Shown here piece after piece: positions 1,264-12,197 of a stretch of DNA of 17,927 bases. The first letter of the stretch is position 1. Each line of letters opens with the position of its first letter. This DNA is from a virus (taxonomy: Duplodnaviria; Heunggongvirae; Uroviricota; Caudoviricetes): IMG/VR virus record IMGVR_UViG_2541047837_000002. One strand, written 5' to 3'. Both the position numbers and the translations under genes were made by a program. The notes under the pieces are model-generated. The model saw only the letters and a program-made list of their open reading frames with translations. It did no database searches and had not been told where the DNA came from.

Positions 1264-2157
1264 CTATTTCCAGTTACAAGCAGCTTGAAGTGGTTTTAGC
1301 GCGTTTGACAGGCCGTTTAAATTGAAAGTTGCACTTACAGGGCTCTCATTATAAGGAGTTATTTTTGTATACATTTTGTTTGAGTTGGCTAGTTTTCGGA
1401 TGAAATCAATGTCATTACCTTTATAAAAAACAGCCTTTGTATCTGTAGATACTAGCCAGTTTCGCTCAACTGCTTTCTGTTTATCAAGACGATAAAGCAT
1501 GCTGGTTTGTTCAAGGCCTAAATATACATCCCAACTAAGAAATACTTCGGTTTTCTTTTCTCGGCAAGCTATAAACAGAGTAGGAGTAACCGCTTCTCCA
1601 AATGGAGTTCTGATATAATCATCACTTTCTAACGATAAAATTACATTTTTCGAATCATCAATTGGCGATGTAGTAATGGATGTGTGCCATTTTCCTACAT
1701 CTGTGGCTTTCTCTAATTTTGATTCAGCTTGAACAGCTTTATCCTGTGGGAATAGTTTATCGTAGCAGTTTAGTCTGGCTTCTTTATCATTTTCTGCTCG
1801 GCATTTAGATATCTCAGAAAGATTTGGTTGCTGAGCCTCTGTTGTTACTGGCTTTTCCGTTTTAGATTTTGAGTTTACAGATGGAGTAAATGTTGGAGAA
1901 AAAAAACGATCATAACAAGATAAACGTCTGTCATCATCTTTCTCATCAGGGCATTGATCTCTGTTTTCGAATTTTTCAGCAACTTTCGTTCGAGTCGGTT
2001 GTATTGACTTATCGTAACAAGAAAGTCTGTCTTTATTATTTTCTATTGCTCGGCACTGGAGTACTGCATTGAAGTTATTATGTTCAGTTGCTGCGTGAAC
2101 AGGCAGTACACTAATTGATATAAATGATGCACCTATAGAAAAAATTATATTTTTCAT
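1264..2157 (-). CDS. Secreted protein of unknown function with three Cys-pair repeats
   Basis: 297-aa ORF with an N-terminal signal peptide (MKNIIFSIGASFISISVLPVHA|ATE). Three degenerate repeats of the form C-x8-RL-[SN]-CYD-[KR]: CRAIENNKDRLSCYDK, CPDEKDDDRRLSCYDR, CRAENDKEARLNCYDK. AT-rich codon usage unlike the neighbouring flk. Confidence 0.7.
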   Translation of the reverse strand: MKNIIFSIGASFISISVLPVHAATEHNNFNAVLQCRAIENNKDRLSCYDKSIQPTRTKVAEKFENRDQCPDEKDDDRRLSCYDRFFSPTFTPSVNSKSKTEKPVTTEAQQPNLSEISKCRAENDKEARLNCYDKLFPQDKAVQAESKLEKATDVGKWHTSITTSPIDDSKNVILSLESDDYIRTPFGEAVTPTLFIACREKKTEVFLSWDVYLGLEQTSMLYRLDKQKAVERNWLVSTDTKAVFYKGNDIDFIRKLANSNKMYTKITPYNESPVSATFNLNGLSNALKPLQAACNWK

Positions 2158-2161
2158 TTTG

Positions 2162-2494
2162 TTATCCTTTTGGTTTAGTAAGAAACACTAAAATTCCGAT
2201 AATGATATCGCCAATAACCCATAAACTTCCAATGGTAATTAAACCTAAGCCTGTACCAATAACTGCACCGGCTTTTTCGGCATCGGATGTAGCATTATTT
2301 ATTATTTCACTAGTGCCTCCCAGTCCAACTAAAAGCGTATAGATCATAAAAATATTAAATAATATAAAAATCCACTTAATGAGCTTTCCAAAAAATGAAC
2401 GCTTAAGTTTTTTTATTTGTTTACCGCAAGCAGGGCAATACAATGCTGAATCGCTCACCTCTTTCTGGCATTCAGGACATTTGATTAATGCCAT
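2162..2494 (-). CDS. Small zinc-ribbon membrane protein (N-terminal CxxC-x12-CxxC, two predicted TM helices)
   Basis: 110-aa ORF: MALIKCPECQKEVSDSALYCPACGKQI, then two hydrophobic segments (IKWIFILFNIFMIYTLLVGL and ITIGSLWVIGDIIIGILVF). AAGGAGG-like RBS 8 nt upstream of the ATG. Its stop is 5 nt from the start of the 297-aa ORF, so the two are probably co-transcribed. Confidence 0.7.
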   Translation of the reverse strand: MALIKCPECQKEVSDSALYCPACGKQIKKLKRSFFGKLIKWIFILFNIFMIYTLLVGLGGTSEIINNATSDAEKAGAVIGTGLGLITIGSLWVIGDIIIGILVFLTKPKG

Positions 2495-2755
2495 GTAATC
2501 CGCCTCCTTTGGATCAATACGAGTTGATATTTGTTACAAAACATTTTGATTTTATCAGATTTTTTTTTATTGATAAGTGTCAATTGATTAGCTGGTATAG
2601 AGTGAGACATAAAGAAGGTCAGATCTGTATCAGTAGTGATGCAAAAATCCCACAGTTTCATGGAATTTTTGCATTTAGAGCCGTGAGATAGGGTGCCTTA
2701 TCGACCTTACCCTGGCAACCGATTGACGGGGGATTACTCCCCCGTCGCGGTTTCC

Positions 2756-2896
2756 TTACTGCTTACACTGTAAGAACGCCGCAAACTCCGCTCCCCAGAA
2801 ACTCATCCGTATTTCGCACAGCGAACCGTGCAACATCCAGATGATGAGGATTACCGTCACGCAGAACGTGATGGCTGTAAGCGATTTTTGCGACAT
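2756..2896 (-). CDS. Hok/Gef-family type I toxin (small membrane peptide)
   Basis: 46-aa ORF missing from the ORF track: MSQKSLTAITFCVTVILIIWMLHGSLCEIRMSFWGAEFAAFLQCKQ. It has one TM helix followed by the family-typical SLCEIR ... E-x-AAF-x-x-C motif. GGAG RBS upstream (aaaaGGAGcaagtgctATG). Confidence 0.7.
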   Translation of the reverse strand: MSQKSLTAITFCVTVILIIWMLHGSLCEIRMSFWGAEFAAFLQCKQ

Positions 2897-3086
2897 AGCA
2901 CTTGCTCCTTTTCCGGAGAGGCGCTAACCTTTCACTTGCTTAGGGTAGACGGTTAGGGCCTCGGTTAAACAAAAGTGTTTTCCGGGGCCTTTCCACATCT
3001 GGCCTTCGGGTATTCCCTCCGACCATCAGCCGAAAGGCACCCGCGCGTAATCTATCGCTTTTTTGTTACTCCGGCAATTCTGCTTG
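2897..3086 (-). promoter_or_regulatory. Putative hok mRNA leader (mok-like upstream ORF, expected Sok antisense target)
   Basis: By analogy with hok/sok loci the 5' leader should hold a short overlapping or upstream reading frame and the antisense RNA gene. A 24-codon upstream ORF (MWKGPGKHFCLTEALTVYPKQVKG) ends about 25 nt before the hok ATG, and a hairpin (gacggggg-attact-cccccgtc, 2725-2746) sits in the 3' UTR. Exact RNA ends cannot be determined from sequence alone. Confidence 0.3.
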
Positions 3087-3347
3087 TTAATTCTTAGGTA
3101 AAGGCAAACTCATCTGATTGTTTCCCCTGTGTGAAGCTGGTAGCTCATGCCACGGGATACCTTCTGAAGAGTGAACGCCGGAGGCGTGTTTCGATGTGAA
3201 TTTATGGAAAGCTTCCAGTGTTGAGAAGCATACGCCGCATTCCAGATTGTTACACTGGTAATACTTTTGCCGCACGGTGTTTGAATCATTTTCCGGACGA
3301 CTTGTGCGGATACGGGCAGATGCGCCACAAAGCGGACAACGGAACAT
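3087..3347 (-). CDS. ogr: Ogr/Delta-family zinc-finger late-gene transcriptional activator
   Basis: 86-aa ORF starting MFRCPLCGASARIRTSR ... YYQCNNLECG, i.e. the Cys4 arrangement and N-terminal signature of P2 Ogr (MFHCPLC...RTSR...QC.N..C). GGGAGG RBS upstream. Confidence 0.85.
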   Translation of the reverse strand: MFRCPLCGASARIRTSRPENDSNTVRQKYYQCNNLECGVCFSTLEAFHKFTSKHASGVHSSEGIPWHELPASHRGNNQMSLPLPKN

Positions 3348-3538
3348 AGCGACCTCCCTTAACGTGGTGTTGCCGCTATTCTAGATTGTACGATCCCTAA
3401 TTCCAACTAACAGCTCGCTCTGTGCGAAGAGTGAAAATTGAACTTTCAATAGTTGTTGAACTTCCATACATCCAATGTGAAAATTCATACGTTCATAATA
3501 GTTAAAATTTAAAATATTGTATATCAGGTGAATAAAGC

Positions 3539-4561
3539 ATGGGAAGAGATATAACGCTGTACCCTAAAAAAGCAACTAGAAACGAACTTAAAAATTACCT
3601 TGAAAATTTAGGTTTTAAAAGGTGTAAACATTTGTGGGAATGGCCCCAAGGAACGTTGAATTACTCTTGGTTTGATGATACGGACTTCAAATCTACAGAT
3701 GGAGTTTCGGCTGATATATATCCTGTTTCAAATGACGAACTACACATATCTGGTAATAAATGGGCATTGCATGTGCGTAATTTATATAGCGCTAGTTGGC
3801 ATGATGTAAAAATGCTTAATGATGTTCTAAAAGGCGCACGGAGTCTTTTTGGTGGAACACTTATAGGTGATTATGGGAAAAATAGGTACGCTCCTCTATG
3901 GAAGGATTCTAGTAGTCCGATCAGTCGTGGCATTTCTTCAATATTTAATCATGTCCATCATGAGATTTCCGCTGTTAAACATGCCTTACCTGAACCTTCT
4001 ATTAAATTAAACCTACCGGAAGATGGCGGCTTATCCGAATACTTTGATTACATGCAATGTATGGATCCCAGTAGAGTTATATATAATGGATTAGTACCTT
4101 TTGCGGTTGCTATGTTTGAATATTTTTTCTCTAGAGCTTTTCAAATACTTATAAAGTACGATCCTTTCGCAATAGCAAAAAGAACATCGTATAAGCAAAA
4201 AGTTGATTTTGATATTCTGCTTGAGATAGAGAAAGGAAATATTTCAATAGAAAGTGTTATTGCAAGAAATTACACTTTTCAAAACTTAACCCACCTAAAC
4301 AAAGCATATAAAGAGTGGCTGGATATAGATGTGAGAGCGATTCTTTATAAGAAAAAAAGAATTGGAAAATCAGTTGATTTTCTTGAGAATCGAATTTCTG
4401 AAATCATACAATATAGACATGGGATAGTTCATCACTTTGAGTTGGATAGGACCTTAAATCGGGATGGATATATTCATATATTAGATGCGATAGAAAAAAG
4501 CATAATTGAATTTATCCATTACATAGAAGGCAAATACAAATTTAAATTAAATGCGTATTAA
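3539..4561 (+). CDS. Hypothetical cargo protein with a C-terminal HEPN-like Rx4H motif; candidate abortive-infection or defence protein
   Basis: 340-aa ORF, conspicuously AT-rich compared with the flanking ogr and D, with an AT-rich promoter-like upstream region and an AGGTGA RBS. C-terminal segment ENRISEIIQYRHGIVHHFELDR contains R-x4-H. No other family signature recognised. Confidence 0.75.
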   Translation: MGRDITLYPKKATRNELKNYLENLGFKRCKHLWEWPQGTLNYSWFDDTDFKSTDGVSADIYPVSNDELHISGNKWALHVRNLYSASWHDVKMLNDVLKGARSLFGGTLIGDYGKNRYAPLWKDSSSPISRGISSIFNHVHHEISAVKHALPEPSIKLNLPEDGGLSEYFDYMQCMDPSRVIYNGLVPFAVAMFEYFFSRAFQILIKYDPFAIAKRTSYKQKVDFDILLEIEKGNISIESVIARNYTFQNLTHLNKAYKEWLDIDVRAILYKKKRIGKSVDFLENRISEIIQYRHGIVHHFELDRTLNRDGYIHILDAIEKSIIEFIHYIEGKYKFKLNAY

Positions 4562-4589
4562 GCAATCAACCTTACATAGGGATGACAAA

Positions 4590-4613
4590 GTCCGCTTCTG
4601 ACACGGAGCGGAC
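4590..4613 (+). terminator. Possible terminator hairpin downstream of the cargo ORF
   Basis: gtccgct ... agcggac inverted repeat followed by a moderately T-rich stretch (cgtcgtttatgttt). Weak. Confidence 0.3.
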
Positions 4614-4681
4614 CGTCGTTTATGTTTAATTCTATACTGTAAACTTGCCAGTTTAAGTCTGAGCTAATATGTCTAAGTTGC

Positions 4682-5782
4682 TCACTCTGTTTCTGCTATC
4701 CATTCCGGGATTTTTGCCTCAAGCTCAAGCTGTGTGGTAAAGCCGCTGTTATCAATGGTGTGCTCGGCTTTTGCAATAATCCAGTCCTGATTATCAATCT
4801 CGCTTTTAAAGCCTGTTACCGTGCCATGCATTTCGGGGTAGAGTTCTGCGCGTCCGCGTGCCAGCATGATGGAGAATGATGCGGCTCCGCGTTGTAGCTG
4901 CTGCCACTTTGCCGCCGCTGCGCGTCTTGCTGCCTGCTCGTTCTGATAAGTCTTGCGTAACACAAACACATTGCCTTCCGCGCCTTCCATATAATCACCT
5001 TCACGGCTGCTGCTTTTCTCCTTTTTCGATTTGCGGCGTTTCACGCTGACTTTTTTCTTTTTCCCGTAATTAAGATCAAGCCAGTAGGCGCGTACACCCG
5101 TATACGCCTCGCGGTCAGCAATGCGAAACTGATGGCGATCGCCGCTGCTGCGTGTGATGGCAAACGATGGCAATGGTTTTCCCTGCGCGTTCACGCCACC
5201 GCCTGGCATGATGAATAACAGATTACCGCTTTTTACCGTGGTGATTGCGCCCAGCATTTCCGCCATGCGCGTAAGGAAGGACATGTCACTTTCTTCGGTC
5301 TGGTCGGCGTGGTCGATTTCGATATCCATCAGCATTTCGCTAATTTGCGGTTTCAGACCGTACCGATGAGCGATGGCGGATACCACACGCTCAACGGTCA
5401 CATCATGCCAGGACACCTCACGTTTAACGTTAAATTCATCCCGAAAATCTGCGCTTCTGGCCGAAATGGTCAGCCTGTCCGGCGGTCCTTCGTGAGCGAT
5501 TTCATCAACAATGTAAGTGCCTTTTTCTGTCAGCGGTTCTCCTTTCCAGCCAATGAGAACCGTCAGGCGCGCGCCCCGTGGCGGTAGCTGCAACTGACCA
5601 TCCGCATCATCCAGCGTGATGGTGAGCTGGTCCGCCTCAAATCCCCGGTTGTCGGTCAGTGACAGGCTCATCAGGCGCTCTGCCACGCCTGACAGCGTTT
5701 TACCCTCCGCGAGAATATCAAAATCCGGCATTTTCACGGGGTCTGTGCCCTGACTGAGCAATTGCATGGTGGTGTCGGTCAT
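4682..5782 (-). CDS. D: P2 gpD-like tail protein
   Basis: The ORF track gives 410 aa from a non-ATG start. The likely true start is the ATG at 5782 (MTDTTMQLLSQGTDPVKMPDFDIL...), which has a GGGAGGG RBS 5 nt upstream. Size and sequence are consistent with P2 late gene D. Confidence 0.85.
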   Translation of the reverse strand: MTDTTMQLLSQGTDPVKMPDFDILAEGKTLSGVAERLMSLSLTDNRGFEADQLTITLDDADGQLQLPPRGARLTVLIGWKGEPLTEKGTYIVDEIAHEGPPDRLTISARSADFRDEFNVKREVSWHDVTVERVVSAIAHRYGLKPQISEMLMDIEIDHADQTEESDMSFLTRMAEMLGAITTVKSGNLLFIMPGGGVNAQGKPLPSFAITRSSGDRHQFRIADREAYTGVRAYWLDLNYGKKKKVSVKRRKSKKEKSSSREGDYMEGAEGNVFVLRKTYQNEQAARRAAAAKWQQLQRGAASFSIMLARGRAELYPEMHGTVTGFKSEIDNQDWIIAKAEHTIDNSGFTTQLELEAKIPEWIAETE

Positions 5783-5939
5783 CTGTTCCCTCCCTGTGCG
5801 GCATGGTCGCATGTGCGTGCGGAGGGGGTTACTGCTTTTTGTTGTCGCCGGGTCGGGAGAACGGCGCAGGGGTGAGATTACGCGCGTGGTGGGTGATGAT
5901 TGTTGCCGAATCATTTAACGGATACAAGGGGCTGAAGCT

Positions 5940-7124
5940 ATGAGTGAAACTCGTTTTCATGGTGCCCGTGTTACGGAAAATACCGACCTGGTAACAGCGA
6001 TTAACGATGTTGATTCCAGCGTTATCGGTATCGTGGCAACGGCGGATGATGCGGACGCGAAGCTGTTCCCGCTGAACAAGCCCACACTGCTGACCCGCGT
6101 CAATGACGTGCTGGGAAAATGCGGGACAACGGGGACGCTTTATCGTGCACTTAAGGCCATCGCAGACCAGGTGAGCACAAAGGTGATCGTCGTTCGCGTG
6201 GCTGAACACAAAGAAGAAGACGGAAAGACGCAGGATCAACTGGTTATCGGTGGTTCTGAGGATGACGGCAGCTATACGGGGATGTATGCGCTGCTTGTTG
6301 CAGAGCAGGATGAAAGCATCGGATACCGTCCGCGTATTCTGGCCGCGCCGGAGCTGGACACGGAGGCTGTAACAAAATCCCTGTGCGTGATTGCAGGTAA
6401 ACTGCGCGCGTTTGTGTATGCCTCATGTTACGGCTGTAACACGATGGCTGAGGCGATTACCTACCGCCAGAAATTCAACGAACGTGAGGTGATGCTCTTA
6501 TGGCCGGACTTCATCGCCTACAACCCGAAAAGTGGCAAAAACGAAACGTTCCCCGCGCCTGCCTATGCGTGCGGCCTTCGTGCGTACATTGACCATGAGC
6601 AGGGCTGGCACAAATCATTGTCCAACGTTCCGGTTAAAAATGTGCTGGGGATGTCGAGGCATGTGTTCTGGTCGTTGCAGGCCGAAGACAGCGATGCCAA
6701 CAGCCTCAACAACAAAGAAATCACGACCATTATTCGTCGCAACGGGTTCCGCTTCTGGGGCAACCGCACACCGGAAACGAACGCCTACATCTTTGAGGTG
6801 TATACCCGAACCGCACAGGTGCTGGCTGATTCAATTGCGGAAGCGCAGTTTGAAACCATCGACAGTCCACTGACGCCTGCGAATGTGAAGGATGTTATCA
6901 GTGCCATCAGGGCAAAACTGGATTCGCTGGTTACTGCCGGGAAACTGATTGGTGCGGAGTGCTGGTATGACGTGGTGGATAACGGCACCACGAATTTACG
7001 TCAGGGGCGTGTGCGTATTCGCTACAAATATACGCCCGTTCCGCCACTGGAAGACATGGAGCTTTACCAGACGTTTACTGATGAATACTTTGAACCCGCA
7101 TTTGCGGTGCTGGGAGGTGCCTGA
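5940..7124 (+). CDS. FI: Contractile tail sheath protein (P2 FI-like)
   Basis: 394-aa ORF with conserved blocks shared with P2 FI as I recall it (FPLNKP, KLRAF.Y, EQGWHK.LSNV, RRNGFRFWGNRT, YKYTPVPPLE). Stop overlaps the FII start (TGATG). Confidence 0.9.
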   Translation: MSETRFHGARVTENTDLVTAINDVDSSVIGIVATADDADAKLFPLNKPTLLTRVNDVLGKCGTTGTLYRALKAIADQVSTKVIVVRVAEHKEEDGKTQDQLVIGGSEDDGSYTGMYALLVAEQDESIGYRPRILAAPELDTEAVTKSLCVIAGKLRAFVYASCYGCNTMAEAITYRQKFNEREVMLLWPDFIAYNPKSGKNETFPAPAYACGLRAYIDHEQGWHKSLSNVPVKNVLGMSRHVFWSLQAEDSDANSLNNKEITTIIRRNGFRFWGNRTPETNAYIFEVYTRTAQVLADSIAEAQFETIDSPLTPANVKDVISAIRAKLDSLVTAGKLIGAECWYDVVDNGTTNLRQGRVRIRYKYTPVPPLEDMELYQTFTDEYFEPAFAVLGGA

Positions 7125-7636
7125 TGGCTGTGCCAAAACATCTTCGCTTTTTTACGCTGTTTGTGGATGGTGAAAACGAAGTGGGTAAGGTGACGTCCGT
7201 CACTCTGCCTAAGCTGACGCGCAAAACCGACAGCTACCGGGGGGGCGGCATGATGGGTGCGGTAAGCATTGATCTCGGTCTGGAAGACTCCGCGCTTGAT
7301 GCGAGCTTTGTCATGGGGGGCGCAGTTCGTGAGCTGTTCCTTAAGTATGGCGGCACGATTGACGGCACGCTGCTGCGTTTTGCGGGTGAATACTACACCG
7401 ATGCAGAAAGTGACCTGTATGAAGTCGAAATGCGCGGACGTGTGACGGAAATTGATATGGGGGAAGCCAAACAGGGCGAAGCCACATCACACACTTACGC
7501 CATTAAAAACACCTACTACAAGCTGAGTGTTAACGATCGCCCGTTGTGGGAGATTGACCTGCTGAACTTCATTTACCGGAAGGACGGCAAGGACATTGTG
7601 CCCGATCGCATCCGTTCCGCGCTCGGGCTTGGCTGA
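7124..7636 (+). CDS. FII: Tail tube protein (P2 FII-like)
   Basis: 170-aa ORF immediately after the sheath gene with a 1-nt stop/start overlap. Size and position match P2 FII. Confidence 0.88.
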   Translation: MAVPKHLRFFTLFVDGENEVGKVTSVTLPKLTRKTDSYRGGGMMGAVSIDLGLEDSALDASFVMGGAVRELFLKYGGTIDGTLLRFAGEYYTDAESDLYEVEMRGRVTEIDMGEAKQGEATSHTYAIKNTYYKLSVNDRPLWEIDLLNFIYRKDGKDIVPDRIRSALGLG

Positions 7637-7690
7637 TAAGTAATATGCAGGCGGCGCAGTGCGTCGCCTCTGACTGAAAGGAGTTTCCTG

Positions 7691-8056
7691 ATGAAAGAGA
7701 CGAAAAACATCGATACCGAAAACACGGTAGTTACTGACACTGTGAAAGAAACCAGTGAGCGTGGCGTAAAACTTACCCAACCAATTGAGCGAGGCGGCGA
7801 AAAAATCACGTATGTGGAGATCACCGGGGCTATTGAGCAGGCTGGATCTCTGCGAGATTTGTCGCTGTCTGATGTGCTGAATCTGAAAGCGGAATCCATG
7901 TTTACGCTGCTGTCACGCGTGACATCACCGCGACTGGATGAAGTGACGATCAAAAAAATGGCATCCCGTGACTTTATTCAGTTATGTGTGGTTGCCGTAA
8001 ATTTTTTGAGCGGTGCGGACTCTGGCGGGAAGAACGAACAGGCGACGGAAGCCTGA
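7691..8056 (+). CDS. E: Tail assembly chaperone E (zero-frame product)
   Basis: 121-aa ORF with an AAGGAG RBS. The internal block DVLNLKAESMFTLLSRVTSP resembles P2 gpE. It contains the TTTTTTG slippery heptamer near its 3' end. Confidence 0.8.
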   Translation: MKETKNIDTENTVVTDTVKETSERGVKLTQPIERGGEKITYVEITGAIEQAGSLRDLSLSDVLNLKAESMFTLLSRVTSPRLDEVTIKKMASRDFIQLCVVAVNFLSGADSGGKNEQATEA

Positions 8057-8220
8057 TCACGGTTGTGTGCTTTGAGCACATTGAAGACTTTGTGGCAGAT
8101 ATTGCCGTTATTTTTAACTGGTCGCCCGCCGAAATCTTCATGATGACGCCCGGCGAAGTGGTTAGCTGGCGTGAGCGGGCGGCACTTCGCAGCGGGAATG
8201 CAGACAATGAAGACTCTTGA
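7691..8220 (+). CDS. E+E' tail chaperone fusion made by programmed -1 ribosomal frameshift
   Basis: The -1 frame ORF 7984-8220 has no plausible independent start and continues from the slippery site at 8002-8008. This is the conserved chaperone pair located between tube and tape-measure genes. Confidence 0.7.
8002..8008 (+). promoter_or_regulatory. -1 frameshift slippery heptamer T TTT TTG
   Basis: X XXY YYZ heptamer in the E reading frame (codons AAT TTT TTG). After a -1 shift it reads FFERCGLW..., identical to the 7984-8220 ORF. Confidence 0.7.
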
Positions 8221-11014
8221 TATCCGGGTCGCTTTCAGCGCCGTTGACAGGCTGACCCGACCTGCCGAAAACGCCCGCCGCCTGATGGGGCAGTTTGGTG
8301 ACTCCATCCAGCGAACGCAGGGGGCGATCAAAAATCTCGAGCGTCAGGCGCGATCATTTGAGCGCGCCCGCGACGCTGTCAGTAAAGCGGACGCGGGCAT
8401 CGTGAAAGCACGACGCCAGCTTAACGCCCTTAATCAGTTACAACGCACGGGTACAGTGCTCAGCGAAAAACAACAAAAGCTGATGCAGCAGTTAAGCACC
8501 CGGCTTGAACGCCTGAATGAATCGCGCACACGGGAAATTCAGAAAATGCGGGAGCTTGGCGGAGAACTGAAACGCCACGGCATTTCCCTGACAGGCAGCG
8601 ATAACACCATTCAGCAGGCCATCAGACGCACCGAACAGTACAACAACCAGCTTGAACGCGAACGGCAGGCGCTTGCGCGTGTAACGCGGGCGCGTGAGCG
8701 GTATTCGCGCGCGCAGGAAACCGCGGGAAAACTGAAAACAGGTGGTGCGCTGGCAATTGGTGCGGCAGCGGCGGGCGGCTATGCTGCCGGGCGTTTTTTG
8801 CAGCCTGCGATCGGGTTCGGCAAAGAGATGTCCCGCGTTCAGGCACTGACGCGAATCGACAAAAACAGCCCGCAGTTTAAGGCGCTGCGTGAGCAGGCGT
8901 TAAAACTGGGCTCTGAAACGCAGTTCACCGCAGGCGATGCCGCCAGTGGGCAGGCATTTCTTGCAATGGCTGGCTTTACACCACAGGCCATTCAGGCTGC
9001 GCTCCCTGGCGTACTGAGCATGGCAACGGCTGGCGGTATGGACCTCGGTGAGACGGCGGATATTGGCTCAAATATTCTGACGCAGTTCGGTCTTTCTGCT
9101 GACCAGATGGACCGGGTCGGCGACACACTCACCGCAGCGTTTACCCGTACCAACACTGACCTTCGCGCACTGGGTGAAACCATGAAATATGCAGGTCCGG
9201 TGGCGGGTAAGCTGGGAATATCGCTGGAGCAGGCCGCAGCGATGGCGGGCGTGCTGGCGAATATGGGTATCAGGGGGAGTGATGCTGGTACGGCAATGCG
9301 TGCCAGCCTGGCTCGTCTGGCATCACCGCCAAAGGCGGCAGCAGAGGCGCTGAAAGAGCTTGGCGTGTCTGTCTCGGATGCCGGGGGCAAAATGCGCCCG
9401 ATGGAGGATGTGCTGGCTGACCTTTATAAAGCTACCCGCAAATACGGGGAAGTTGACCGGGTATCGTTCTTTAAGGACATTGCCGGAGAAGAGGCTTTCA
9501 CATCATTTATGGCCCTCGTTGATGCGGCAGGTGACGGCTCCTTACCCAAACTGAGAAAAGAACTTGAAGGCGCGCGCGGTGAGGCTGAACGCACGGCAAA
9601 GGTTATGGCCAACAACCTTGACGGCGATCTGAAATCACTCAGCAGTGCATGGGAAGGGTTGCGCATCCGCATTGCAGATCTGATTGACGGTCCGCTGCGT
9701 TCTGTCACGCAGTGGCTCACGCGTGTGGTATCAAAGGTGACGGCGCTGGCGCAGGCCCATCCCGCACTGACGCGCCAGCTACTGATTGCAGGCGGTGCAC
9801 TGCTGGCAATGACTGCAACGGTTGGCTCGTTGTCGCTGGCTATTGGTGTGCTTGCTGGCCCGCTGGCAAAACTGCGTCTTGGTTTTTCCCTCCTGACCGG
9901 ATCAATGAATGCTGTCAGGGTTCTGCCAGCACTATGGGGAATGGTGACGGGTTCCGTTTCTTTACTGGGAGGCGCTATCGGGGCGTTGTTCAGTCCGGTT
10001 GGTCTTATCGTGGCTGCGCTTGCCGGAGCTGCCGTTCTTATCTGGAAATACTGGGATCCCATCAGGGCATTTTTTGCCGGGGTGTTCAGCGGGATTATGG
10101 AAAGGCTGACCCCGTTGCGCGAAACCTTTGAACGGTTTGGTCCTGTTTTTGACGCAATCGGGAGTGGGATCAGCCAGGTGTTTAACTGGTTTAAATCGCT
10201 GCTGTCACCGATGGAGTCCAGCAAGGAAACTCTGGATAAATGTACCAGTGCTGGCGAGATATTCGGTAACGTTCTTGGCGGTGCGTTACAGCTTGTTCTG
10301 ACACCTGCAAAAATGTTGCTGGATACGCTGGCGTGGATACTTGAAAAGCTTGGTGTGCTTCCGGATGAAGCGGAAAGGGCGCGCAAGAAAATCGAAGACG
10401 CACAGCGTGCGGCCATTCTTCAGGACAAGGTTGCCTTGCTTCAGGGGGACCTGGCGAAAATCAATCCGCCGAAGCCTGTGGAAAATGGCAATGGCACCGG
10501 AGGTGATAACCCCAAAGACAATAAACCGCTCACAGACAGCAATACCGGTACGCTGCGCAGACTCAGCAAAATTGCTGATAACACAGGTAAGCTGGTTGAG
10601 GAGACGAAAAAACGCATTGGCCCCGGCGATATTGTCTTTAAAAACCTGCCCCGAGCACTTGCTGTTCGTGGGGAGTGGCAGGAGCGGAAGATTGCGCAGG
10701 TCAGTAAGCCTGCCCCCGCAATTAATATCACACCCGTGGTCCCGGCTCCGCTGCCTCCGGCGCTGGTCCCTGTTGTTGCGGCCAGCTCCCGCCCGGTGGC
10801 GGAGGCTATACGATCTCCAGTGGCATCAGTTCCTGTAACTTCCCGTAACCGGGAGCCTGTTGCCTCCGGATTTGGTGGTGAAATTCATGTTCATCTGCAT
10901 AACGTTGTTACGCAGAATCCCCGCGAACTGGCGAAACTGGTCGGTGAAATGGTCAGGGCAGAAATGGAACGGCGCGCCCGTGCCGGGCGTGGCAGTTTTT
11001 ACGATAAAGATTGA
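8198..11014 (+). CDS. T: Tail tape-measure protein (P2 gpT-like)
   Basis: Ala/Gly-rich ORF of about 938 aa with a coiled-coil N-terminal part and internal hydrophobic segments, placed between E/E' and U. The start is uncertain between the ATGs at 8198 and 8207; the ORF track's 8171 is a non-ATG start. Confidence 0.88.
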   Translation: MQTMKTLDIRVAFSAVDRLTRPAENARRLMGQFGDSIQRTQGAIKNLERQARSFERARDAVSKADAGIVKARRQLNALNQLQRTGTVLSEKQQKLMQQLSTRLERLNESRTREIQKMRELGGELKRHGISLTGSDNTIQQAIRRTEQYNNQLERERQALARVTRARERYSRAQETAGKLKTGGALAIGAAAAGGYAAGRFLQPAIGFGKEMSRVQALTRIDKNSPQFKALREQALKLGSETQFTAGDAASGQAFLAMAGFTPQAIQAALPGVLSMATAGGMDLGETADIGSNILTQFGLSADQMDRVGDTLTAAFTRTNTDLRALGETMKYAGPVAGKLGISLEQAAAMAGVLANMGIRGSDAGTAMRASLARLASPPKAAAEALKELGVSVSDAGGKMRPMEDVLADLYKATRKYGEVDRVSFFKDIAGEEAFTSFMALVDAAGDGSLPKLRKELEGARGEAERTAKVMANNLDGDLKSLSSAWEGLRIRIADLIDGPLRSVTQWLTRVVSKVTALAQAHPALTRQLLIAGGALLAMTATVGSLSLAIGVLAGPLAKLRLGFSLLTGSMNAVRVLPALWGMVTGSVSLLGGAIGALFSPVGLIVAALAGAAVLIWKYWDPIRAFFAGVFSGIMERLTPLRETFERFGPVFDAIGSGISQVFNWFKSLLSPMESSKETLDKCTSAGEIFGNVLGGALQLVLTPAKMLLDTLAWILEKLGVLPDEAERARKKIEDAQRAAILQDKVALLQGDLAKINPPKPVENGNGTGGDNPKDNKPLTDSNTGTLRRLSKIADNTGKLVEETKKRIGPGDIVFKNLPRALAVRGEWQERKIAQVSKPAPAINITPVVPAPLPPALVPVVAASSRPVAEAIRSPVASVPVTSRNREPVASGFGGEIHVHLHNVVTQNPRELAKLVGEMVRAEMERRARAGRGSFYDKD

Positions 11015-11020
11015 GGAGTC

Positions 11021-11515
11021 ATGGCCATGATGATGATCTACGGCATGTTTGTTTTTGAGCTGCGCACGCTGCCGCATCAGCAGTTACAGCAAAACAAAAG
11101 CTGGCGGCATGTGAAAAATGAACGCGTTAACCGTTCAGCAAGCTGGCAGTATATCGGTGCAGGTGATGATCGCATCGTTCTTTCTGGTGTGCTTTATCCT
11201 GAAATTACAGGTGGCGAAGTGTCGCTGTCGCTGCTGACCACGCAGGCGTATACAGGACGACCCTGGCCTTTGATTGATGGCGTCGGGCAGATTTACGGCA
11301 TGTATGTCCTGACTGAAACGAATACGACCCGCTCCGAGTTTGATCGCTACGGTAAGGCGAAAAAGATAGAATTTTCACTGACTCTTGAACGCTGTGATGA
11401 GGATTTGCGGGAGCGCCTGCAATCCTCATCGTTCAGTGATATGCTGTCCGGCTTCAAAGATAAGGTGACATCATCTCTTAACAGCGCGGCCAGTTCAGTT
11501 AAAGGGCTGTTCTGA
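11021..11515 (+). CDS. U: Tail protein U (P2 gpU-like)
   Basis: 164-aa ORF (MAMMMIYGMFVFELRTLPHQ ... YPEITGG ... YGMYVLTE) resembling P2 gpU, directly after the tape-measure gene. Confidence 0.85.
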   Translation: MAMMMIYGMFVFELRTLPHQQLQQNKSWRHVKNERVNRSASWQYIGAGDDRIVLSGVLYPEITGGEVSLSLLTTQAYTGRPWPLIDGVGQIYGMYVLTETNTTRSEFDRYGKAKKIEFSLTLERCDEDLRERLQSSSFSDMLSGFKDKVTSSLNSAASSVKGLF

Positions 11516-11526
11516 TTTAACACAAA

Positions 11527-11556
11527 AACCGCTAATGGTCAGATTAGCGGTTTTCA
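11527..11556. terminator. Bidirectional intrinsic terminator between U (+) and the invertase gene (-)
   Basis: Stem aaccgctaat / attagcggtt (11527-11536 and 11543-11552) with loop ggtcag, flanked by T-runs on both strands (ttttcatttt downstream on plus; ttttgtgtt on minus). Confidence 0.6.
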
Positions 11557-12143
11557 TTTTCCTGAGTCTGCCCGGTTGTTTCTTCAGTCTGTATATCGCC
11601 TACAGGGTGATAACGATAAATCGTCGATGTGCCAATGCCGTAAATTATTGCCAGTTGTTTTCTGTCGTGCCCGTTTTTGATTAGCCTTGCTATTTGCTCA
11701 TGCTGTTCTTTTGTCAGCTTCGGTCGACGTCCGCCTGTGCGCCCCCTTGCGCGCGCTGCCGCCAGCCCGGCCAGTGTACGTTCAACAATTAATTCACGTT
11801 CCATTTCAGCCAGGGCACCCATCACGTGGAAGAAAAAACGCCCCATTGGAGAAGATGTGTCTATGCTGTCGGTCAGACTGCGAAAATTAATCCCTCGCTC
11901 CCGTAGTTCCCCGACGAGAGAAATCAGATGTTTCATGCTTCGCCCGAGGCGATCCAGTTTCCAGACAACCAGCGTGTCACCTTTTTGAAGGCGCTTTAAA
12001 GCGCGTTTTAATCCCGGTCGGTCTGTCTTTGTCCCGCTTAATTTATCTTCAAATATTTGTTCACATCCTGCACAAACAAGAGCGTTTCGTTGCAGGTCTG
12101 TATTCTGGTCATTTGTTGATACCCTTACATAGCCAATCAGCAC
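11544..12143 (-). CDS. Serine-recombinase DNA invertase (Hin/Gin/Cin/Pin family)
   Basis: The N-terminus LIGYVRVSTNDQNTDLQ carries the catalytic-Ser motif of the resolvase/invertase family, and a C-terminal HTH-like region (LAIIYGIGTSTIYRY) follows. The likely start is the GTG at 12143, preceded by AGGAGA; the ORF track's 12161 is a TTG further upstream. Confidence 0.85.
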   Translation of the reverse strand: MLIGYVRVSTNDQNTDLQRNALVCAGCEQIFEDKLSGTKTDRPGLKRALKRLQKGDTLVVWKLDRLGRSMKHLISLVGELRERGINFRSLTDSIDTSSPMGRFFFHVMGALAEMERELIVERTLAGLAAARARGRTGGRRPKLTKEQHEQIARLIKNGHDRKQLAIIYGIGTSTIYRYHPVGDIQTEETTGQTQENENR

Positions 12144-12197
12144 ACTGAATCTCCTGTCCAAAAGCGCAAATCATGCCATGCAGGCCAGAAACGGCCA

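Follow-up and report, generated by a model that had tools for sequence, protein, structure and literature searches.

HEPN proteins in phage defence

The RiboL-PSP-HEPN domains (PF18735) form an active family that is distantly related to AbiD/AbiF (Anantharaman et al., 2013; PMC3710099), and PF18735 is the HEPN domain listed for PD-T4-2, PD-T4-5 and other validated defence systems of E. coli (PMC10952713). Here we describe a gene that lies between ogr and D in a 17,927-nucleotide stretch of viral DNA (IMG/VR record IMGVR_UViG_2541047837_000002, Caudoviricetes; the whole stretch is called the window below). The C-terminal half of its product is very probably a genuine HEPN domain, which belongs to PF18735 or stands at its edge, and the most likely role of this cargo gene, at slightly better than an even chance, is a one-protein anti-phage or abortive-infection (Abi) defence mechanism.

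Several described systems invite comparison. PD-T4-2 consists of two genes, as does a validated system of the DefensePredictor study that appears to be DS-33 (WP_014639476.1 and WP_000354965.1, internal label 'GNAT'). Its HEPN protein is 320 amino acids long and has as its nearest known defence homologue PD-T4-2_B, a RiboL-PSP-HEPN protein; an R258A variant of it appears in the plaque-assay table. AbiD, AbiD1, AbiF and PD-T4-5 (Abi_2), of which RiboL-PSP-HEPN is a distant relative, are single HEPN proteins of ~300-350 amino acids that reside on mobile elements and confer abortive infection, and systems of the AbiF type require an upstream non-coding RNA that carries abiF motifs and blocks the HEPN site. 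RnlA/LsoA (RNase LS), finally, are accompanied by a downstream antitoxin (rnlB/lsoB).

A HEPN domain joined to a conserved N-terminal domain

The coding features of the cargo gene are as follows.

3539-4561, + strand: coding sequence including the stop codon; ATG start, 340 amino acids
3539-3913, + strand: N-terminal α+β domain (residues 1 to ~125) of no known family; proposed sensor or autoinhibitory domain
4064-4558, + strand: C-terminal HEPN domain of the RiboL-PSP-HEPN type (residues ~176-340)
4415-4432, + strand: Rx4H motif R293-H-G-I-V-H298, with R293 and H298 invariant in 73 relatives

An earlier note on this DNA, made from its letters alone, had pointed out the open reading frame (ORF) for 340 amino acids, an Rx4-6H signature in the C-terminal region and an N-terminal part that resembled no named family, and all three observations hold. 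The signature lies within the peptide ENRISEIIQYRHGIVHH (residues 283-299), with the R293 codon at 4415-4417 and the H298 codon at 4430-4432, and it has the polar residue after the arginine that is expected of HEPN domains (R293-H294-G-I-V-H298). Across the 73 relatives, which reach down to ~20% identity, no columns other than E194, R293 and H298 are invariant; H294, conserved to at least 90%, makes up the near-invariant residues of the C-terminal part together with N183 and F247-Q248. From this pattern of conservation, E194, R293 and H298 are likely to constitute the catalytic core. The Pfam profile HEPN_RiboL-PSP (PF18735) matches residues 181-329 (E 1.2e-4, profile positions 29-189 of 191), at a score below its cut-off that is discussed further down; it also matches 46 of the 73 relatives at E ≤0.01 (best 5e-9), and most close homologues carry a precomputed match to it. 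There is no novelty in the HEPN assignment as such, which automated annotation already makes; the RefSeq product name of the cargo gene is 'hypothetical protein'.

With the RiboL-PSP-HEPN family the protein has in common an alignable stretch of 150-160 C-terminal residues, the acidic residue of helix 1 and the motif R-[H/N]-x3-H. The traits in which the family was originally recognised, fusion to an endoRNase L-PSP domain and a ParB neighbour (PMC3710099), are absent here, and a Pfam scan found no L-PSP domain in any of the 73 members; instead, the protein adds an unrelated, uncharacterised N-terminal domain. It shares with PD-T4-2_B and the HEPN protein of the apparent DS-33, both E. coli anti-phage proteins, a RiboL-PSP-type HEPN domain and an extra N-terminal region of ~130 amino acids. 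An hhalign comparison with the latter protein spans the entire HEPN domain and sets E194 and R293-x4-H298 in register with its helix-1 glutamate and R258-x4-H, in an alignment that is marginal (E 0.009, probability 4.5%), and the N-terminal regions of the two proteins do not align. Whereas PD-T4-2 and the apparent DS-33 are two-gene systems, the cargo here is a single gene with neither a partner nor a PADLOC match.

In being a single HEPN protein of this size on a mobile element, the product resembles AbiD, AbiD1, AbiF and PD-T4-5; Abi_2, however, is not among the six Pfam families that are matched by any of the 73 members. The only HepT-type family among these six is HepT-like_2, matched by one member of the 73 (E 0.0077), and the single-gene insert holds no adjacent MNT nucleotidyltransferase as would be found in HepT-MNT. 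Membership of the RnlA/LsoA group was considered and rejected: hhalign against RnlA of E. coli K-12 gave a probability of 0.1%, the fold match is weak, and no antitoxin gene of the rnlB/lsoB kind is found beside the cargo gene or its homologues.

An AlphaFold2 model of the monomer (mean predicted local distance difference test score, pLDDT, 84.8; predicted template modelling score 0.75) shows two parts linked by a long helix, with a β-α-β-β-β-α-β arrangement in residues 1 to ~125 and an all-helical domain in residues ~167-333. Near-invariant N-terminal residues among the 73 relatives are G55, D89, N94, F104-G105-G106 and G113, and conservation amounts to 76% in the N-terminal domain, 69% in the HEPN domain and 46% in the linker. 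The N-terminal domain has no match in Pfam, in the PDB or among viral structures. A sequence search of PDB chains with the protein gave nothing below E 0.1, and Foldseek against the PDB and BFVD gave nothing below E 0.03, the best matches being the N-terminal domains of spermine synthase and BamC, both generic α+β folds; scans with PADLOC, NCBIfam and PHROGs models yielded no usable match for the protein. In the profile search described below, the N-terminal domain was never found apart from the HEPN domain or fused to another effector. Two partial matches that might have indicated such fusions (P0123 and P0197) were dismissed as frameshift-like junk, and two others (P0206 and P0243) have the identical two-domain plan.

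A gene without a recognisable partner

The small-ORF listing contains no other credible ORF inside the insert, and no tandem repeats were found there. The RNA of AbiF-type systems has no counterpart here: an Rfam scan of positions 2400-4800 at E up to 1 found no abiF-type RNA, its only matches being a sok-like RNA and a weak CsrC (E 0.46), both of which fall beyond the cassette, on the left side of ogr. Upstream stretches of 300 nt from homologue loci in five distant hosts show no similarity to the upstream region in the window. Likewise, no conserved neighbour emerged from an all-against-all BLAST comparison of 255 ORFs from 30 loci, in which no family occurs in more than three loci. Some homologues do have a same-strand gene of 200-300 amino acids directly beside them (L005 9064-9957, L009 7236-7937 and L004 7244-7849); these genes are not homologous to each other and thus do not represent a partner family. 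A hidden partner gene was rejected on the strength of the small-ORF listing and the neighbour comparison over 30 loci. An AbiF-like RNA antitoxin was rejected as well, since Rfam matches, tandem repeats and upstream DNA all gave no sign of one. With no partner ORF, RNA family match, conserved upstream DNA or conserved neighbour, the gene is best regarded as a stand-alone unit.

These results also bear on the alternative that survives best next to a defence role, namely that the gene is a selfish toxin or addiction module that stabilises the prophage or the cassette, with an antidote in the form of the N-terminal domain in cis, an unannotated small RNA or a host factor. We regard this as unlikely. 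An antitoxin ORF, a repeat array, an Rfam match and conserved upstream DNA are all lacking, as is a conserved neighbour in the 30 loci, and a lone toxin without a labile antidote cannot give rise to post-segregational killing. The distinction is not absolute, as many toxin-antitoxin and Abi systems also defend their hosts, so that the two explanations overlap.

An ordered cassette at the ogr-D junction

The locus forms the right end of a prophage that is integrated beside flk and, within the P2 family, falls into the P88-like group (Xuanwuvirus/Gemsvirus, Peduoviridae). Positions 3348-4681 match the E. coli IHE3034 chromosome at 100%, as do positions 3087-5914, and the gene order annotated there agrees with the ORFs of the window. 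The flanking genes and the parts of the cassette are listed below.

3087-3347, minus strand: ogr (Pfam Ogr_Delta, 5e-14)
3380-3388, + strand: left copy, on the boundary of the cassette, of a direct repeat of 8-9 bp, TCTAGATTG
3384-4671: inserted cargo cassette, 1288 bp, GC 0.342, delimited by comparison with the empty junction of P88
3392-3419, + strand: left cassette-end element, degenerate GGCTCAGACTCCAACTGACAGTT, which aligns with the reverse complement of right ends
3456-3484, + strand: candidate promoter, read by eye; TTGAAC, 17-nt spacer and TGTGAAAAT (extended -10)
3526-3531, + strand: good ribosome-binding site, AGGTGA, 7 nt ahead of the ATG
4590-4613, both strands: hairpin after the stop codon (-23.9 kcal/mol, z -3.66 on the + strand)
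4644-4671, + strand: right cassette-end element CTTGCCAGTTTAAGTCTGAGCTAATATG, which repeats the left-end element in inverted orientation
4672-4680, + strand: right copy of the direct repeat, TCTAAGTTG, immediately ahead of the D stop codon
4682-5914, minus strand: D (Pfam Phage_GPD, 2e-17)

Homology to phage P88 ends at 3383 and restarts at 4672, which gives an insert of 1288 bp whose edges differ from the span first assigned to it (3348-4681) by 36 bp on the left and 10 bp on the right. In P88 as well as in Shae_phiSM, PhiR44_2, P884B11 and Chuche, ogr and D abut. The insert stands out in composition: the cargo ORF has a GC content of 0.337 (0.261 at third codon positions, GC3) and the 155-bp stretch upstream of it 0.323, as against 0.479 for ogr, 0.541 for D (GC3 0.586) and 0.536 for the tail sheath gene. 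Among 5426 complete E. coli genomes, an ogr-D region of matching type is present in 1457 and an intact empty junction in 720; the cargo gene is found in 65 (~1%), always as a single chromosomal copy between ogr and D. The empty site in close relatives, the small number of E. coli carriers and an AT-rich composition in all 30 loci compared (see below) together indicate horizontal acquisition. The earlier note had read the gene as a horizontally acquired, stand-alone cargo, richer in AT than its neighbours, that interrupts the D-ogr adjacency, ends in a possible terminator and occupies a slot for variable, defence-like genes; these points are upheld by the comparisons given here, the terminator as a plausible structure with a weak U-rich tail. 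Its further reading of the gene as one for defence or a toxin finds support at the level of a hypothesis.

The expression signals are those of an independent unit. All homologues begin with MGRD at the aligned start, in agreement with the ATG chosen here. A promoter scan by consensus returned nothing on the + strand upstream of the cargo ORF; the elements picked out by eye (TTGAAC at 3456-3461 and TGTGAAAAT at 3476-3484) may serve as the promoter of the cargo gene, and they are not conserved at distant homologue loci. The stem at 4590-4613 also forms on the minus strand, and a terminator scan assigns the hairpin a weak U-rich tail; it probably terminates transcription of both the cargo gene and D, from opposite directions, and is plausible though non-canonical. 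The cassette can be described as a self-contained accessory unit, or 'moron', with its own ribosome-binding site, probable promoter and terminator. It combines a fixed polymorphic site, atypical composition, expression signals of its own and alternative cargos, all of which are hallmarks of moron and defence-hotspot genes.

Elsewhere, in further E. coli genomes and in phage 520873, the same slot is occupied by different cargos, of which there are at least eight. These comprise a PIN_4 protein (500 amino acids), an SEC-C/YecA-like protein (379 amino acids), a DUF2971 protein with a match to the candidate system PDC-S31 of PADLOC (5e-27), a ComF-like phosphoribosyltransferase that resembles PsyrT (1e-7) and has a 185-amino-acid partner, and four unrelated hypothetical proteins of 465, 384, 221 and 132 amino acids; most of these alternatives lack a defence annotation. 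Nine cassettes with unrelated cargo that were compared are inserted at the identical point of the ~35-bp ogr-D spacer. The empty site holds a single TCTAAGTT, and each of the nine occupied sites has a copy of TCTAAGTT on both sides. The ends of the cassettes are imperfect inverted repeats of each other and are conserved across unrelated cargos, over ~30 bp in most cassettes and ~80 bp in two, and they include a terminator-like motif. A dispersed miniature inverted-repeat transposable element was considered as their source and rejected, the ends being found at one place per genome and without a second copy in the window; the end element is specific to this slot, and the slot to P88-like phages. 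The TCTAAGTT repeats may stem from duplication of the target site, from an att-like core or from a deletion between direct repeats.

The P2 hotspots old/tin (A-Q) and Z/fun (tail genes) likewise offer a fixed position to interchangeable, AT-rich and often defence-related cargo. The slot described here differs from them in its location, the ogr-D spacer of P88-like phages, and in its inverted-repeat ends and 8-bp flanking repeat; neither the spacer nor its cassette ends are named in the P2-hotspot literature examined. According to recent surveys, accessory-gene exchange in P2-family phages is rapid and its mechanism unexplained (PMC13586616).

Distribution, constraint and genomic company

A search of 5.8 billion proteins yielded 295 homologues, the best 120 of which are all ~340 amino acids long and 64-99% identical to the query; named sources are Pantoea, Proteus, Shewanella, Aeromonas, Pseudomonas, Methylococcaceae and Halochromatium. 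A second search, run exhaustively with a profile against 1.84 billion representatives, gave 343 clusters at E up to 0.001, and its full-length matches have ~330-350 residues and align end to end. A scan of loci, restricted to one genome per species, recovered 33 from Gamma- and Betaproteobacteria, Bacteroidota, Desulfobacterota and Gemmatimonadota; with further loci in Patescibacteria, Spirochaetia, Cyanobacteria, Acidobacteriota, Verrucomicrobiota and others, more than ten phyla are represented, mostly at 56-88% identity to the query. In each of the 30 loci compared, the gene exceeds its flanks in AT content, the difference ranging from 0.03 to 0.24.

The protein is under unusual constraint. 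The ratio of non-synonymous to synonymous substitution rates (dN/dS) is ~0.10 in comparisons with the Hafnia and Mixta genes. Saturation of synonymous sites (proportion of synonymous differences, pS, 0.78-0.89) is seen relative to Shewanella, Aeromonas and Pseudomonas, with proteins that are still 66-73% identical, which points to strong constraint and not merely to recent transfer. Such constraint is unusual in a gene of mobile elements, and it is the N-terminal domain, more than the nuclease domain, that is conserved.

The homologues reside in varied genomic settings. The Pantoea homologue is part of a lambdoid prophage and has a SIR2_2 gene nearby. That of Pseudomonas is on a P4-like island, which carries genes for an integrase, AlpA and DUF927 and adjoins a UvrD-type helicase gene, and those of Shewanella and Aeromonas are in small islets amid housekeeping genes. 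ORFs within 6 kb of homologues were compared with PADLOC models, and the very strong matches at several loci in other phyla include a type VI retron reverse transcriptase (2.5e-97) with its helix-turn-helix protein, HamB (E = 0), subunits of type I restriction-modification systems (down to 2e-294), a CBASS cyclase (9e-74) and components of PDC-S34, PDC-S25, PDC-S11 and MADS; Pfam matches among the neighbours are to integrases, transposases, MazF toxins and a STALD domain. This association with defence genes is suggestive, and it is not a statistic.

Position and distribution also allow a second alternative to be weighed, in which the gene serves the phage itself, either as an RNase that upon induction reshapes the transcripts of host or phage, as a counter-defence, or as a weapon against P4-like satellites that exploit the Ogr-controlled late genes. 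The gene does sit inside the late region beside the late activator ogr, in a slot specific to P88-like phages, and phages are known to place RNases and anti-defence genes in variable slots. However, it is oriented antisense to the phage late genes, ogr and D included, and is followed by the terminator-like hairpin, which makes membership of the late operon unlikely. Moreover, close relatives occur outside phages, in the Shewanella and Aeromonas islets and in the non-phage Pseudomonas island, and most P88-like phages, the cultured P88 among them, do without the gene. A service to the phage appears a little less probable even than an addiction module.

Proposed mechanism and points against it

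A one-protein defence mechanism of the kind favoured here would, by analogy, act much like the single-protein HEPN Abi proteins and RnlA/LsoA, without being a member of either family. The insert and its mobility, the assignment of domains, the invariant residues, the missing partner and the genomic context are shown by the comparisons above; we infer a defence phenotype, RNase activity, a trigger and N-terminal autoinhibition, which could be connected as follows. In the lysogen, the HEPN nuclease would be held silent in cis; as no partner was found, the N-terminal domain is the obvious candidate for restraining it. The N-terminal domain would sense a cue that is supplied by an infecting phage and is probably either a protein or an alteration of some conserved component of the host. 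The HEPN domains would then pair to form a composite active site, and the paired HEPN would cut cellular or phage RNA (tRNA, rRNA or mRNA), upon which translation would stop and the superinfecting phage would be blocked.

A number of findings weigh against this proposal. The PF18735 match of the protein scores 22.5 bits against a gathering cut-off of 28.4 bits and is thus under threshold, and a comparison with PADLOC v2 models gave no match at E up to 1. In the structural model, residues 292-299, which contain the Rx4H motif, are the single low-confidence segment (pLDDT <50), so that the placement of the motif in the fold and the geometry of the active site are unsettled. HEPN active sites assemble at dimer interfaces, and the model is that of a monomer. 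Defence genes usually diverge fast, and an identity of 56-88% across phyla with a dN/dS of ~0.1 is unusual for them. The signal from defence genes in the neighbourhood comes without a matched control and with many housekeeping neighbours. Finally, literature searches by WP accession, by PF18735 and by 'RiboL-PSP-HEPN' brought up no study of the protein, the papers searched contain no experiment on it or on a close relative, and the protein does not figure in the supplementary tables of DefensePredictor, several of which were only partly covered.

The last alternative, a HEPN fold that does not cleave RNA and instead acts as a nucleotide- or protein-binding scaffold like the C-terminal HEPN of AbiA or that of sacsin, with any activity possibly residing in the N-terminal domain, is improbable, because the only invariant positions of the family are of catalytic type, H294 is the polar residue after the arginine that is typical of active HEPNs, and the family is described as active (PMC3710099).

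The defence reading can be extended to cover the constraint and the cassette together. The protein may represent an unrecognised one-protein HEPN immune family that senses a universal cue and is carried in a site-specific cassette dock at ogr-D, a combination that we consider possible, if rather doubtful. The conserved N-terminal domain would in that case sense a conserved cellular or phage cue (e.g. the translation machinery) and not a fast-evolving phage protein, and the dock, made up of the TCTAAGTT core and inverted-repeat ends of ~30-80 bp, would point to an as yet undescribed route by which phages of the P2 family exchange defence genes.

Neighbouring genes of the prophage

The genes around the locus show some features of their own. 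The FI-FII-E-T-U tail genes (5940-11515, + strand) face the opposite way to D, unlike in P2, and they are followed by a recombinase gene of the Cin/Gin type (11544-12161, minus strand) and by duplicated tail-fibre and assembly segments. The orientation of D relative to FI had raised the suspicion of a dead or scrambled prophage, which was ruled out by the identical order in the cultured phage P88; the layout is a trait of the lineage and no sign of decay. A 2024 preprint describes invertases and the inversion of adjacent genes at this locus of P2. The longest ORF of D encodes 410 amino acids, compared with 366 in P88, and in several genomes PGAP calls D as a protein of only ~261-266 amino acids plus a small pseudogene fragment, from which it follows that the start of D is annotated inconsistently between records.

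On its other side, ogr is adjoined by a toxin gene of the hok/gef family (window ~2756-2896, minus strand), which is annotated in both IHE3034 and P88, and by a sok-like antisense RNA (2883-3042, minus strand; Rfam RF01794, 51.9 bits, under the gathering score of 59 bits); this hok/sok-like type I toxin-antitoxin pair is kept in all P88-like loci examined. A second AT-rich cargo (GC 0.35-0.36; window 1264-2494, minus strand) lies between hok and flk at the end of the prophage. It encodes a VasI/TagO-like protein of 297 amino acids (PF11319, 2.5e-25; phrog_1848) and a zinc-ribbon membrane protein of 110 amino acids (phrog_6586), neither of which has a PADLOC match; a gene resembling a type VI secretion accessory gene is an odd find within a P2-family prophage.

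Outlook

Candidate HEPN defence genes are already common in P2-family prophages. Three features lift the present case above the ordinary: an N-terminal domain that is both strongly constrained and uncharacterised, the lack of any partner, and an orderly docking site for cassettes between ogr and D. With its fixed position and the cassette ends held in common, the ogr-D site makes the exchange of accessory genes in the P2 family amenable to testing. The unusual sequence constraint, in turn, recommends this gene for the study of what is sensed by an abortive-infection nuclease that consists of a single protein. If lysogens proved to be protected, the immunity genes of prophages would gain a HEPN effector that is compact (1 kb), needs no partner and bears a new sensor domain, and an 'unknown' gene that occurs in many phyla and in ~1% of the complete genomes of E. 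coli would be explained.

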